NCBI RefSeq assembly: GCF_028714655.1
Contig: NZ_JAQTLY010000013.1
Span: forward strand, 1,906-65,905
Length of the DNA stretch: 64,000 nucleotides
Source: Sulfurimonas sp.
GTDB lineage: Bacteria; Campylobacterota; Campylobacteria; Campylobacterales; Sulfurimonadaceae
Reading direction: 5' to 3'
The notes under the pieces are model-generated. The model was not told the origin of the DNA and ran no database searches. It worked only from the letters and a program-made list of their open reading frames with translations. This document shows, in pieces, positions 8,226 to 10,118 of this stretch. Made by a program: the position numbers and the translations under genes. Positions within the stretch are counted from its first letter, which is position 1, and every line of letters starts with the position of its first letter.

Positions 8226-8242
8226 TGATTAAAAATTAATCA
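8226..8242. promoter_or_regulatory. Palindromic candidate operator upstream of amtB-glnK
   Basis: TGATTAA-AAA-TTAATCA perfect 7-3-7 inverted repeat; TATAAT at 8274-8279. Confidence 0.6.
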
Positions 8243-8310
8243 TTTTTTTGCCCTGTAATATATTTTTTGGATATATAATTTTGAATAGATTGGTTATAAA
8301 AGGATGAAAG

Positions 8311-9564
8311 ATGAAGAGGTTTTTACTTAGTTTGTTGGCTCTACCGTCTTTGGCGTTTGCTGAAGATTCGCTAAGTAGCGGCAATACCGCTTGGATGCTT
8401 GTTGCTACCGCTTTTGTTATGCTTATGACTCCTGCCGGGCTAGCACTGTTTTACGGAGGTTTAACTCGTAGTAAAAATGTGCTAAATACTATAGGTATGA
8501 GTTTAGGCGCTTACGCAGTCGGCACTTTGGTATGGGTTTTGGTCGGTTACTCTATAGCGTTCGGGGACGGAGATATTATAGGAAGCGGCAAGGTTTTACT
8601 TTCCGGAATAACATCGGATACTTTAAAGGGAACTATCCCTGAACTTTTGTTTGTAACATTTCAGGGAACTTTTGCGGCTATCGCGGTTGCAATTGCGAGC
8701 GGTTCTATGATTGAGAGGGTTAAGTTTTCTACATATATGATTTTTGCGGCTTTGTGGATTGTTGCGGTTTATGCACCGGTAGCACACTGGGCTTGGGGTG
8801 GGGGTTCATCGCTTAACTTTGGAGAGATGGACTTTGCAGGCGGAACGGTTGTTCACTTAAATGCAGGTATAGCAGGTTTTGTGGTTGCGATGATAATTGG
8901 CCGCAGAAGAGATTACGGCAAAGCGGCAATCAAACCGTTTTCGCCTGTGTTGGTTTCACTCGGTGCGGCGCTTTTATGGTTTGGCTGGTTCGGGTTTAAT
9001 GCAGGTTCGGCATTGGCTGCGGACGGTATAGCTTCATCTACATTTTTAGTTACAAATATTGCCGCATCTCTGGGTGTAATCGGTTGGATTATGGTAGAGT
9101 GGTTTGTTTATAAAAAAGCGACGATTATAGGCGGAGCTTCGGGAGCAGTTGCAGGGTTGGTTGCTATTACTCCTGCATCAGGAACTGCCGGTGTCGAGGG
9201 TGCGATTATAATTGGTTTAATCGGCGGAGCTTTAGGTTTTATCGGTGTGGCAAAACTAAAAACTATGTTTAAAGTAGATGATTCATTGGATGCGTTTTGG
9301 ATCCACGGTTTGGTAGGAATCTGGGGTTCGATTGCAACTGCAATATTTATTGCGCCTTATGCTATGATAGAGAACTACAGTATGGCTTCCCAGTTGGCAA
9401 GTCAGCTAAAAGCAATCGGATTAACAACTGTTTATAGTGCTGTTGCGACTGCAGTTGTTTATTTTATAGCTTCAGCAATAACAGGCGGCGGCAGAGTTGA
9501 CGATGAGAGCGAAAACAGAGGTCTTGACGAAACAATTCACGGTGAAAAAGCAATAAATCTGTAG
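8311..9564 (+). CDS. amtB: Ammonium transporter AmtB
   Basis: Signal peptide, LMTPAGLALFYGG, DFAGGTVVH and LWFGWFGFNAGS; twin His present (VVH, FWIHG). Confidence 0.95.
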   Translation: MKRFLLSLLALPSLAFAEDSLSSGNTAWMLVATAFVMLMTPAGLALFYGGLTRSKNVLNTIGMSLGAYAVGTLVWVLVGYSIAFGDGDIIGSGKVLLSGITSDTLKGTIPELLFVTFQGTFAAIAVAIASGSMIERVKFSTYMIFAALWIVAVYAPVAHWAWGGGSSLNFGEMDFAGGTVVHLNAGIAGFVVAMIIGRRRDYGKAAIKPFSPVLVSLGAALLWFGWFGFNAGSALAADGIASSTFLVTNIAASLGVIGWIMVEWFVYKKATIIGGASGAVAGLVAITPASGTAGVEGAIIIGLIGGALGFIGVAKLKTMFKVDDSLDAFWIHGLVGIWGSIATAIFIAPYAMIENYSMASQLASQLKAIGLTTVYSAVATAVVYFIASAITGGGRVDDESENRGLDETIHGEKAINL

Positions 9565-9621
9565 TATTGCTTAAAAGCACAAAAATGGTTACAATTTTAA
9601 ACTTAATTTGGAGATATTATT

Positions 9622-9960
9622 ATGAAAAGAGTAGAAGCGGTTATTAAACCATTTAAATTAGAAGATGTTAAGGACGCGTTGGCAGAGATAGGAATTACCG
9701 GTATGACGGTAAGTGAAGTAAAAGGCTACGGTCGTCAAAAAGGTCATAGCGAACTTTACCGCGGTGCCGAGTATGTTGTAGATTTTTTGCCTAAAATAAA
9801 AATGGAAATGGTAGTCGATGATGAGAATGTAGATCAGGTGATTAACACAATTGTAGAGGCTGCTAGAACGGGCAAAATAGGTGACGGTAAAATTTTTGTC
9901 AGCGATATTGAAAAAATTATCCGTATTCGTACCGGTGAAACAGATAGCGAAGCGATATAA
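9622..9960 (+). CDS. glnK: P-II nitrogen regulatory protein
   Basis: 112 aa; GYGRQKG, T-loop ELYRGAEY (Tyr51) and GKIGDGKIF; directly after amtB. Confidence 0.92.
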
Positions 9961-9976
9961 TAATTTAACTTTTTTG

Positions 9977-10005
9977 TTCTCTATATCTAAAAAAGATATA
10001 GAGAA
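9977..10005. terminator. Hairpin / probable intrinsic terminator after glnK
   Basis: TTCTCTATATCT-AAAAA-AGATATAGAGAA, a 12-bp perfect stem; the downstream U tract is weak. Confidence 0.55.
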
Positions 10006-10034
10006 TCGACTTATACATTAAAAAATCCTCAAAC

Positions 10035-10051
10035 TGATTAAAATTTAATCA
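10035..10051. promoter_or_regulatory. Second copy of the palindromic candidate operator, upstream of the second amt gene
   Basis: TGATTAA-AAT-TTAATCA; TATAAT at 10082-10087. Confidence 0.6.
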
Positions 10052-10118
10052 ATTAAAAAAAACATTGCTTAATTTCTAAGATATAATCTTTCCTTTATTT
10101 TTCAAAAGGATCTCCTAC

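Follow-up and report, generated by a model that had tools for sequence, protein, structure and literature searches.

A 17-bp palindrome upstream of ammonium transporter genes as the probable operator of a nitrogen-assimilation regulon in free-living Campylobacterales, with a shortened NtrC-type protein as its predicted regulator

The 17-bp palindrome TGATTAA-N3-TTAATCA lies upstream of both ammonium transporter genes in a 64,000-nt stretch of Sulfurimonas DNA (the window). Judged from sequence comparisons, it is quite probably the operator of a nitrogen-assimilation regulon in free-living Campylobacterales and would be bound by a reduced NtrC-type protein that likely acts as an activator. In the Sulfurimonas studied here, the proposed regulon comprises amt1-glnK, amt2, glnA, narK/nasA, and at least one membrane protein of no assigned role. 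A strong regulator candidate, a variant operator in Arcobacteraceae, and the apparent Fis-type nature of the site are new relative to the preliminary description of this DNA. The two amt loci are organized as follows.

8226..8242, no strand: operator 1, TGATTAAAAATTAATCA, perfect 7-3-7 palindrome upstream of amt1-glnK
8274..8279, + strand: TATAAT, candidate -10 element of the amt1-glnK promoter, 31 nt past operator 1
8311..9564, + strand: amt1, ammonium transporter (Pfam PF00909 Ammonium_transp, E 1e-109)
9622..9960, + strand: glnK, PII signal protein (Pfam PF00543 P-II, E 1.5e-34)
9977..10005, no strand: perfect 12-bp inverted repeat TTCTCTATATCT / AGATATAGAGAA with a 5-nt loop, read from the sequence between glnK and operator 2
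10035..10051, no strand: operator 2, TGATTAAAATTTAATCA, perfect palindrome upstream of amt2
10082..10087, + strand: TATAAT, candidate -10 element of the amt2 promoter, 30 nt past operator 2, from sequence and spacing statistics
10119..11294, + strand: amt2, another ammonium transporter, paralogous to amt1 and under a separate promoter (Pfam PF00909, E 4e-87)

Translation of amt1 starts at 8311 and that of amt2 at 10119, 68 nt and 67 nt past their respective sites, and the N-terminus of amt1 is signal-peptide-like. GlnK is probably encoded on one transcript with amt1, and the inverted repeat at 9977..10005 is possibly the boundary or terminator of this first transcription unit; a terminator scan makes no call there because no T-run follows the repeat. 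The preliminary description had reported perfect 7-3-7 palindromes at 8226-8242 and 10035-10051, distances of 31 and 30 nt from site to TATAAT, and no GG-N10-GC box in either promoter. Both palindromes were found again in the sequence, the distances agree with the coordinates, and inspection of the amt1 and amt2 leaders revealed no such sigma-54 element. A -35 hexamer is likewise missing from the amt1-glnK promoter, where a consensus -35/-10 scan detects no canonical promoter. The sequences around the two operators share no similarity beyond the -10 box.

The occurrence of two copies is real and far beyond chance. Two exact matches are observed in the window, where dinucleotide shuffles yield an expectation of 0.01 (1.5 once two mismatches are allowed). 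The 2.19-Mb genome (36.7% G+C) contains just these two sites with at most one mismatch, both in front of amt genes, while ~0.07 are predicted from base composition, which extends the earlier observation that the window holds no further full copy. The exact motif is present in 146 of 401 Campylobacterales genomes and its reversed control in 2, so the motif is not a product of the AT-rich background. The relaxed form TGNNTA-W5-TANNCA is not enriched genome-wide (nine observed versus one to eight in Markov simulations), and specificity therefore comes from position and the strict form alone. The relaxed form was accordingly rejected as a stand-alone predictor and is useful only in combination with position.

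Twin sites ~1.8–1.9 kb apart recur in five other Sulfurimonas genomes, and the regions upstream of amt1 orthologues carry a site with at most two mismatches to the operator in 64 of 80 loci. The phylogenetic footprint proposed earlier is seen in five genera (Sulfurimonas, Sulfuricurvum, Sulfurovum, Nitratifractor, and Sulfurospirillum), in which both palindrome and -10 box persist before amt1 while the flanks diverge. Conservation across the leaders of relatives is limited to these two elements, and the invariant operator positions across lineages are -7, -4/-3, +3/+4, and +7.

The sites are associated with nitrogen genes well beyond the amt loci. In the Sulfurimonas genome, sites with two mismatches lie 63–70 nt before glnA, narK, and the gene for a 197-aa membrane protein, and the degenerate copies before glnA and narK/nasA are found at the same distance as at the amt genes. 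Among 30 retrieved motif loci, the flanking genes encode Amt (12), NarK-like proteins (5), porins (5), and GlnA (3), with nifA, a formate/nitrite transporter, and nirA among the others; relatives additionally carry the motif in front of nifA, nirA/nirB, a nitrite transporter gene, and porin genes. Taking this genome and relatives together, the motif scan suggested in the preliminary description returned copies before glnA, narK/nasA, nirA/nirB, and nifA, and so supports the earlier reading. The best -10 hexamer is located 30–32 nt past the site in 136 of 228 site-gene pairs, with a peak at 31. At the amt genes the site ends 30–31 nt before TATAAT, which places its center near -52, and the fixed gap fits the earlier proposal of a site near -52 of a sigma-70-type promoter. 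This spacing would suit a dimeric activator, and the predicted activation is deduced from the position of the site alone.

The binder of the operator is most likely a shortened NtrC-type protein whose DNA-binding end resembles Fis. The candidate is a single-copy protein of ~245 aa (234–256 aa in homologues) whose sole database label is “Fis family regulator”. Its gene is located outside the window, between slyD and fabD (G000:C8:6823-7536). The protein consists of a compact, Walker A-containing AAA+ core and a C-terminal Fis-like helix-turn-helix (HTH) domain (PF02954, HTH_8; E 4e-6 to 8e-6 in Sulfurovum orthologues), and the copy from the studied genome lies above the curated HTH_8 cut-off. 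Residues 16–35 align with the Walker A region of NtrC1 and residues 74–139 with NtrC1 155–218; because the alignment jumps from Walker A to the lid, ~56 aa of the AAA+ core appear to be missing. The PF00158 match is confined to profile positions 4–43. A GAFTxA-like motif is found in none of 240 homologues, while the FlgR control has GAFTDA. No REC or other N-terminal sensory domain is present, as there is no Pfam REC match and the protein begins at the AAA+ core. The AlphaFold2 model (pLDDT 83) contains AAA+, lid, and HTH only and matches NtrX, NtrC1, ZraR, and PspF. The C-terminus aligns with Fis residues 34–93 and keeps N84, R85, T87, R89, and K90 (phmmer: GLNRNTLRKKI in the candidate versus GINRGTLRKKL at Fis residues 82–92), and the helix motif N-R-x-T-L-R-K-K is invariant in the alignment of homologues. 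A weak sequence match of the HTH domain to that of TyrR was also detected. Neither the motif nor the candidate protein was found in print in a full-text literature search, whose coverage leaves out most subscription journals.

The genome encodes three other HTH_8 ORFs, which were rejected as binders for their unlike recognition helices and non-nitrogen contexts.

FlgR, the sole true sigma-54 activator in the Sulfurimonas genome
197-aa REC-HTH protein, beside a kinase and near pilus genes
299-aa REC-HTH protein, near ispDF

The candidate gene in Sulfurimonas has no nitrogen gene beside it and no operator before it. Among sites with two to four mismatches 40–110 nt before ORFs, a scan of the genome for a self-regulated regulator gave no convincing case; a WYL-type gene was rejected as it has only sites with three to four mismatches.

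Operator and candidate are linked by several lines of comparison. The published Fis consensus is GNtYAaWWWtTRaNC / GNTYAAAWTTTRANC (PMC2816674, PMC6907758), and the inner 15 bp of the two operators, GATTAAAAATTAATC and GATTAAAATTTAATC, fit GNtYAaWWWtTRaNC. By its base pattern, the operator is thus a Fis-type site, beyond an NtrC-like geometry alone. The regulator gene adjoins amt-glnK in at least seven families. In Arcobacteraceae, it forms an operon with glnD and is divergent from amt-glnK-amt-glnK, and the operator is shifted to TGTATA-W5-TATACA. The recognition helix differs along with it: NRNTLRKK is found in 118 of 120 Sulfurimonas-type proteins, paired with TGATTA half-sites, and NRITLRKK in 119 of 120 Arcobacteraceae proteins, paired with the shifted operator. 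Families with an NRV or NRG helix keep TGATTA half-sites, and few independent events lie behind this covariation. Of the 27 Arcobacteraceae genomes that carry the gene, 26 also have the TGTATA operator, compared with none of the 12 genomes that lack the gene (Fisher p = 3e-9, with kinship ignored); one genus supplies 5 of the genomes with the gene and 11 of those without. Order-wide, the gene occurs in 141 of 146 motif-bearing genomes (odds ratio 19, a hand count from tables that ignores kinship). It is also present in 151 genomes that lack the exact TGATTAA motif, much of which, though not every family, is accounted for by variant operators. The Arcobacteraceae site stops 8–9 nt short of a TTTACA -35 box and thus leaves the core promoter free.

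The regulator is likely accompanied by a conserved NtrB-like remnant made up of a PAS domain and a kinase catalytic domain. This partner protein of 233 aa contains the PAS domain up to about residue 95 and a CA-like catalytic domain from about residue 110. Its AlphaFold2 model (pLDDT 84) matches PAS-kinases over the full length; LOV-kinases and ThkA are among the matches, and CA domains such as that of NtrB (1r62, TM 0.67) correspond to the C-terminal half. The DHp/HisKA phospho-acceptor domain is absent (no Pfam HisKA match and no room in 233 aa), which makes a phosphorelay impossible. HATPase_c gives no Pfam match either, and G1/G2 boxes are not seen in the alignment consensus. One JGI source labels the partner “nitrogen-specific signal transduction histidine kinase”. 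In Arcobacteraceae, a 287-aa protein upstream of the regulator was rejected as a divergent PAS-CA partner, as hhalign detects no similarity and Pfam no domain.

Several other explanations of the palindromes have to be weighed. That they arose by chance in AT-rich intergenic DNA, or are left over from a duplicated amt promoter, and have no regulatory role is hardly credible. The low G+C content, the 1.5 sites expected per window at two mismatches, and the paralogy of amt1 and amt2 would allow for it, but the expectation for exact matches is 0.01, the flanks share nothing except the -10 box, and conservation of the motif extends over several genera and unrelated nitrogen genes, with a near-empty reversed control. 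A role as enhancers for canonical NtrC on sigma-54 promoters is just as far-fetched. The 17-bp dyad is shared with NtrC sites and rpoN is presumably present, since FlgR is; however, the stretch from site to start codon lacks GG-N10-GC, the genome encodes no sigma-54 activator other than FlgR, the gap to TATAAT is short and fixed, and the candidate has no GAFTGA.

There is a slim chance that the palindrome is a true nitrogen operator to which another factor binds (MerR/TnrA-like, Lrp/AsnC-like, or another HTH protein), with the NtrC remnant acting elsewhere. The candidate search covered the HTH_8 ORFs; moreover, the odd 17-bp geometry and the -50 position resemble TnrA sites, and the W3-centered palindrome recalls Lrp/AsnC-type sites (5-3-5 with a W3 center). 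Against such a binder stand the Fis-type consensus in the operator together with the Fis DNA-contact residues in the candidate, the covariation of helix and half-site, the restriction of the Arcobacteraceae operator to gene-bearing genomes, the position of the gene beside amt-glnK and glnD in many families, and the unlike helices and non-nitrogen contexts of the three remaining HTH_8 ORFs. Specific boxes fit poorly as well: a Crp/NtcA-type binder is disfavored because such sites are even-length and the present dyad is odd-length, and a Fur-type 7-1-7 box has the wrong spacing. It is somewhat easier to envisage, though still unlikely, that the shortened NtrC-type protein is mainly a repressor or anti-activator in nitrogen excess, through upstream DNA bending or a block of the alpha-CTD/UP-element. 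At two loci (L152 and L154), a site lies ~20 nt before the start codon of the regulator itself, which suggests autorepression, and some promoters are repressed by NtrC and by Fis. Yet a rigid spacing of 30–32 nt from site to -10 box, where no -35 element is present, is typical of activator-dependent promoters, and the Arcobacteraceae site is clear of the core promoter.

The preferred reading, activation by the shortened NtrC-type protein, would proceed as follows. A dimer of the ~245-aa protein would sit on the palindrome and recognize it in a Fis-like manner through G/C at -7/+7, T-A steps at -4/-3 and +3/+4, and the AT-rich center. From a position ~52 bp before the start site, it would most likely activate these sigma-70-type promoters, which lack a -35 box, in nitrogen limitation. 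Nitrogen status would probably reach the regulator without phosphorylation, and the likely route is the PAS and catalytic-domain partner together with the PII/GlnD system. Chances are about even for the broader proposal that the whole nitrogen regulon of free-living Campylobacterota (here Sulfurimonas, Sulfurovum, Sulfuricurvum, Nitratifractor, Sulfurospirillum, and many Arcobacteraceae) is under a phosphorylation-independent descendant of NtrB/NtrC, in which a pseudokinase and a receiver-less, GAFTGA-less AAA+/Fis-HTH protein connect PII/GlnD status directly to sigma-70 promoters via the one Fis-type dyad at -52. If true, such a system would represent a surviving link between NtrC and Fis, with a new PII signaling logic.

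The hosts are chemolithoautotrophs that dominate sulfidic, vent, groundwater, and sediment habitats, where nitrogen control has been without a described regulator. The A. butzleri genome paper remarks on the absence of NtrB/NtrC (PMC2147049), and a shortened NtrC-type regulator would explain control of nitrogen uptake without the textbook pair. A defined operator allows regulons to be predicted directly from genomes and metagenomes, the named candidate gene is a target for genetics and biochemistry, and the natural operator/helix variants (NRN with TGATTA, NRI with TGTATA) lend themselves to specificity swaps. In evolutionary terms, a sigma-54 enhancer-binding protein would have been reduced to an activator of sigma-70 promoters that recognizes DNA in the manner of Fis, a change that bears on the old proposal that Fis derived from NtrC. 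For signaling, it offers a PII case that may run through a pseudokinase without phosphotransfer.

Among known systems, NtrB/NtrC (NRII/NRI) of Proteobacteria shares with the present one the control of glnA, amtB-glnK, and nitrate/nif regulators, the 17-bp dyad, the AAA+ lineage, the Fis-type HTH, the linkage to glnD/glnK, and a partner with PAS and kinase catalytic domains. The catalytic domain of NtrB is its PII-binding domain. The present regulator differs by lacking the receiver, the GAFTGA loop, and ~56 aa of the AAA+ core, and its partner by lacking the DHp/His domain. NtrC acts from remote tandem enhancers (TGCACC-N5-GGTGCA), whereas a single site with another half-site sequence lies at about -52 of sigma-70-type promoters here. 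Fis of Gammaproteobacteria, which also activates sigma-70 promoters from upstream sites, shares the C-terminal ~60 residues with their contact residues, the fit to the operator core, and the AT-rich center. It is, however, an abundant 98-aa nucleoid protein with N-terminal hairpin arms and hundreds of degenerate sites, whereas the ~245-aa candidate has an N-terminal AAA+ remnant and only a few sites in each genome, every one of them at a nitrogen gene (two strict and nine relaxed in Sulfurimonas).

NtrX, Rhodobacter capsulatus NtrC, and TyrR combine AAA+ and Fis-type HTH domains, lack a functional GAFTGA, and work at sigma-70 promoters, and NtrX is among the best structural matches of the candidate model. 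In all three, however, the AAA+ domain is full-size and a sensor or receiver domain occupies the N-terminus, whereas the candidate has neither sensor nor receiver. Their binding sites differ from the present one as well, for example the TyrR box TGTAAA-N6-TTTACA. As functional analogues, TnrA/GlnR of Bacillus activate amtB-glnK (nrgAB) and nitrate genes at sigma-A promoters from 17-bp palindromes centered at about -49 to -51. These are MerR-family regulators, and the half-site sequence sets the present system apart: TGATTAA misfits the box TGTNA-N7-TNACA at positions 3 and 5, and TGTATA at position 5. NtcA of cyanobacteria (GTA-N8-TAC) likewise acts as a global activator in nitrogen control, at sigma-70-type promoters with no -35 box, and the Arcobacteraceae variant can be written as GTA-N9-TAC. 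NtcA is a Crp-family protein with an even-length site at -41.5, whereas the present dyad is odd, one base wider, and located ~10 bp further upstream.

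Both ammonium transporter genes of the window are preceded by the same 17-bp palindrome, TGATTAA-N3-TTAATCA (operators 1 and 2), and the two copies were found again at the coordinates and at the 31 and 30 nt from a TATAAT box that the preliminary description had reported.

Features of the window and, where a contig (C) is named, of the rest of the genome (G000)
~3377-4700 (C13:5282-6600), minus strand: FlgR-type REC-AAA+-HTH_8 protein with GAFTDA, near gyrA
8226-8242: operator 1, TGATTAAAAATTAATCA, read in the sequence ahead of amt1
8274-8279: TATAAT box, 31 nt past the end of operator 1
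8311-9564: amt1, ammonium transporter, start codon 68 nt past the end of operator 1
9622-9960: glnK, PII gene, next after amt1
10035-10051: operator 2, TGATTAAAATTTAATCA, read in the sequence ahead of amt2
10082-10087: TATAAT box, 30 nt past the end of operator 2
10119-11294: amt2, ammonium transporter, start codon 67 nt past the end of operator 2
C2:183486-186051, outside the window: pair of putative rpoD and PAS-CA gene
C2:185368-186051, outside the window: PAS-CA gene, 10 nt past the stop of the 623-aa putative rpoD
C5:115565-116158, outside the window: 197-aa membrane protein without Pfam domain
C8:6823-7536, outside the window: HTH_8 regulator, between slyD and fabD

Dinucleotide shuffles give 0.01 expected exact matches per window, and operators 1 and 2 are the only sites with one mismatch or fewer in the whole genome (2.19 Mb, 36.7% G+C), which bears out the earlier remark that the window holds no other full copy. 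The amt1 leader, with gyrA divergent on its other side, and the amt2 leader show no relatedness beyond the palindrome and the −10 box; the paired sites are therefore not the product of a duplicated promoter. A GG-N10-GC element is absent from both leaders when their sequence is read, as had been said of a sigma54 box. amt1 itself is 99% identical to amt1 of a Sulfurimonas sp. MAG.

Smaller repeats surround these sites. A short palindrome in the amt1-glnK spacer (9567-9578, TGCTTAAAAGCA) looks like two operator half-site ends of the TGCTTA/TAAGCA type abutted without the usual spacing. Directly after glnK, 29 nt upstream of operator 2, lies a perfect 12-bp inverted repeat (9977-10005; TTCTCTATATCT, 5-nt loop, AGATATAGAGAA), AT-rich and without a T-run, which may be the end of the amt1-glnK transcript or an additional protein site. 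Many Sulfurimonas amt1 leaders (e.g., loci L039, L059, L060, L063, and L041) carry a TGATTAAT-like half-site 6 nt past the main palindrome, and in some leaders a TTAAC/TTAAGCA immediately ahead of the −10 box pairs with it. This half-site is not kept outside the genus and could be a second, weaker binding element.

The palindrome is almost certainly a nitrogen-regulon operator. Its exact form occurs in 31/61 relatives and in 146/401 genomes of the order, far above the reversed control, which occurs in 2 genomes in each set. In a neighbor-gene tally of 30 fetched sites, amt adjoins 12, NarK-type nitrate/nitrite transporters 5, porins 5 (Gcw_chp, OprD/alginate-export-like, and unclassified types), and glutamine synthetase 3; a GAF-AAA NifA-type activator, a formate/nitrite transporter, and a ferredoxin-type nitrite reductase also lie beside fetched sites. 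Nitrogen genes were likewise returned by the scan of the genome itself, in keeping with the preliminary description: sites with two mismatches lie 65 nt ahead of glnA and 63 nt ahead of narK, from which a molybdopterin nitrate reductase diverges. Another lies at the canonical distance of 70 nt ahead of the gene for the 197-aa membrane protein (TGATTAATATTTATACA), and in all three cases 31 nt separate the site from a TATAAT or TATACT box. A homolog of this protein is encoded divergently from narK at locus L013, next to an exact site, and the protein is probably a regulon member. Weaker candidates with three mismatches precede a Gcw_chp-type porin and glnD.

Footprinting across 80 amt1 loci (Sulfurimonas, Sulfuricurvum, Sulfurovum, Nitratifractor, Sulfurospirillum, and further Campylobacterota) shows the palindrome kept with at most two mismatches at 64/80 leaders, while the flanks diverge, as expected of an operator in the preliminary description. 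In 228 non-redundant site-gene pairs, the best −10-like hexamer lies 30 to 32 nt past the site in 136 (peak at 31, n = 70), and the start codon most often follows at 62 to 70 nt. A position-wise profile confines conservation to the palindrome and TATAAT. With a start site assumed ~7 nt past the −10 box, the site is centered near −52, just upstream of the usual place of the −35 box. A promoter scan found no −35 box in these promoters; Arcobacteraceae promoters have a TTTACA −35 box, and their site ends 8 to 9 nt upstream of it. This arrangement is typical of activator-dependent promoters of the sigma-70 type.

A candidate binder is found in Sulfurovum-type loci, where two co-oriented genes lie immediately upstream of amt1-glnK. 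The first encodes the regulator, 244 aa long, in which a Fis-type HTH_8 domain is accompanied by traces of a sigma-54 interaction domain, the second a 233-aa PAS-like protein with a marginal Pfam PAS match only. The regulator gene is single-copy in 55/61 relatives and 292/401 genomes of the order, under generic database names only (“Fis family transcriptional regulator,” “sigma 54-interacting transcriptional regulator”). In one arrangement, the order slyD-regulator-fabD is kept; in the other, regulator and PAS-like genes are adjacent, mostly next to amt-glnK (families f7, f8, f13, f14, f17, f19, and the Sulfurovum group). Arcobacteraceae have the gene order 287-aa protein-regulator-glnD, which diverges from amt-glnK-amt-glnK; Pfam confirms GlnD. 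The regulator is likely to bind the operator. The other two small HTH_8 ORFs of the genome were rejected as binder, their helices and contexts being different. In two families (L152:6025-6041 and L154:6033-6049), an operator lies only ~20 nt before the regulator’s own start codon, which suggests autoregulation there; no such site was seen upstream of the Sulfurimonas gene.

Against solved structures, residues 16 to 35 of the regulator correspond to NtrC1’s Walker A region and residues 74 to 139 to NtrC1 155-218, so that the AAA+ core is short of ~56 residues. The protein has no receiver domain, and a GAFTGA-like motif occurs in 0/240 homologs; the control, FlgR of the window, has GAFTDA and is the sole complete sigma-54 activator in the genome. 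The AlphaFold2 model (pLDDT 83) takes on a compact AAA+ fold with lid and HTH, closest to NtrX, NtrC1, ZraR, FleQ, and PspF. The C-terminal ~60 residues match E. coli Fis 34-93, placing GLNRNTLRKKI over GINRGTLRKKL of Fis with Asn84, Arg85, Thr87, Arg89, and Lys90 kept. These five residues contact DNA in Fis-DNA structures. The operators’ inner 15 bp, GATTAAAAATTAATC and GATTAAAATTTAATC, match the Fis core at every specified position. This core has been published as GNtYAaWWWtTRaNC (PMC2816674) and as GNTYAAAWTTTRANC (PMC6907758). Across lineages, the half-site reads TGATTA, TGCTTA, TGCCTA, or TGTATA; TG (1-2), TA (5-6), TA (12-13), and CA (16-17) are invariant, corresponding to −7, −4/−3, +3/+4, and +7 in Fis numbering, plus an AT-only center.

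The exact TGATTAA motif is found in 0/39 Arcobacteraceae genomes, and in that family all the amt and glnK operons inspected are preceded by TGTATA-W5-TATACA.

Recognition helices and half-sites
NRNTLRKK, 118/120 Sulfurimonas-type proteins: TGATTA
NRITLRKK, 119/120 Arcobacteraceae proteins: TGTATA
NRI, family f13: TGTATA
NRA, family f17: TGTATA
NRV, family f14: TGATTA
NRG, family f20: TGATTA

Across these families, the code is therefore not one-to-one, and independent switches are few in number. In a reciprocal scan of the whole order, the TGTATA form occurs in 26/27 Arcobacteraceae genomes with the regulator gene (1-15 copies each) and in 0/12 without it (Fisher p = 3e-9, a statistic that ignores kinship). 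The strongest part of the phyletic evidence is the contrast within one genus, whose 5 gene carriers have 3 to 6 sites each and whose 11 non-carriers have none. By an order-wide hand count that ignores kinship, 141/146 genomes with the TGATTAA form carry the gene. Of the five exceptions, three are 57 to 87% complete, one belongs to a family otherwise without gene and motif and its site has a non-AT spacer, and one is 98% complete. Families f3, f12, f25, and f26 lack both. One Arcobacter-like genome has TGTATA sites ahead of nifA, a nirB-like reductase, a formate/nitrite transporter, a nasA-like reductase, an NrtA-like binding protein, a TRAP binding protein, and eutB. In genome G141 (L208:1594-2152), a small gene encoding a Pycsar effector (PycTM) domain has a TGTATA-type site 71 nt upstream, which may reflect chance or an unexpected place in the regulon.

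By globally activating nitrogen genes (amt-glnK, glnA, and those for nitrate), the regulator would resemble NtrBC, TnrA, and NtcA. Unlike enhancer-binding proteins, it lacks GAFTGA, a receiver, and a sigma-54 promoter at its targets, and its build is not that of Fis, a small nucleoid protein. The description that suits it best is an NtrC derivative, reduced and directed to sigma-70, that recognizes DNA in a Fis-like way. Of the dimeric activator proposed earlier to bind near −52 of a sigma70 promoter and to co-regulate two amt genes, the geometry and the shared sites stand, and the activation we infer: the regulator probably activates transcription. The account as a whole is regarded as likely. 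In full-text literature searches, neither motif nor protein was found described, in agreement with the preliminary description, whose author knew of no described regulator with such a site in Campylobacterota; the A. butzleri genome paper (PMC2147049) records a lack of NtrB/NtrC homologs.

In the model of the 233-aa partner (pLDDT 84), a histidine-kinase catalytic-domain (CA) fold comes after a PAS domain, with no DHp helices in between. Foldseek matches the model to PAS-kinases as well as to catalytic domains, among them that of NtrB (1r62, TM 0.67). HATPase_c and HisKA were not found by Pfam, G1/G2 boxes were not seen in the alignment consensus, and the protein is probably a pseudokinase. 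Most sources annotate it as hypothetical; one JGI label reads “nitrogen-specific signal transduction histidine kinase.” Its position in this Sulfurimonas suggests co-transcription with the putative housekeeping sigma-factor gene. A relay from PII through the PAS-CA protein to the regulator would be plausible, because PII binds enteric NtrB at the catalytic domain. A conserved 276-290-aa protein (L191:6234-7097, L158:6769-7599, and homologs) is encoded immediately upstream of the regulator in Arcobacteraceae and f14. It has no Pfam domain and, by hhalign, no relation to the PAS-CA partner. In Arcobacteraceae, its gene is in an operon with glnD, and the system may have in this protein a third component.
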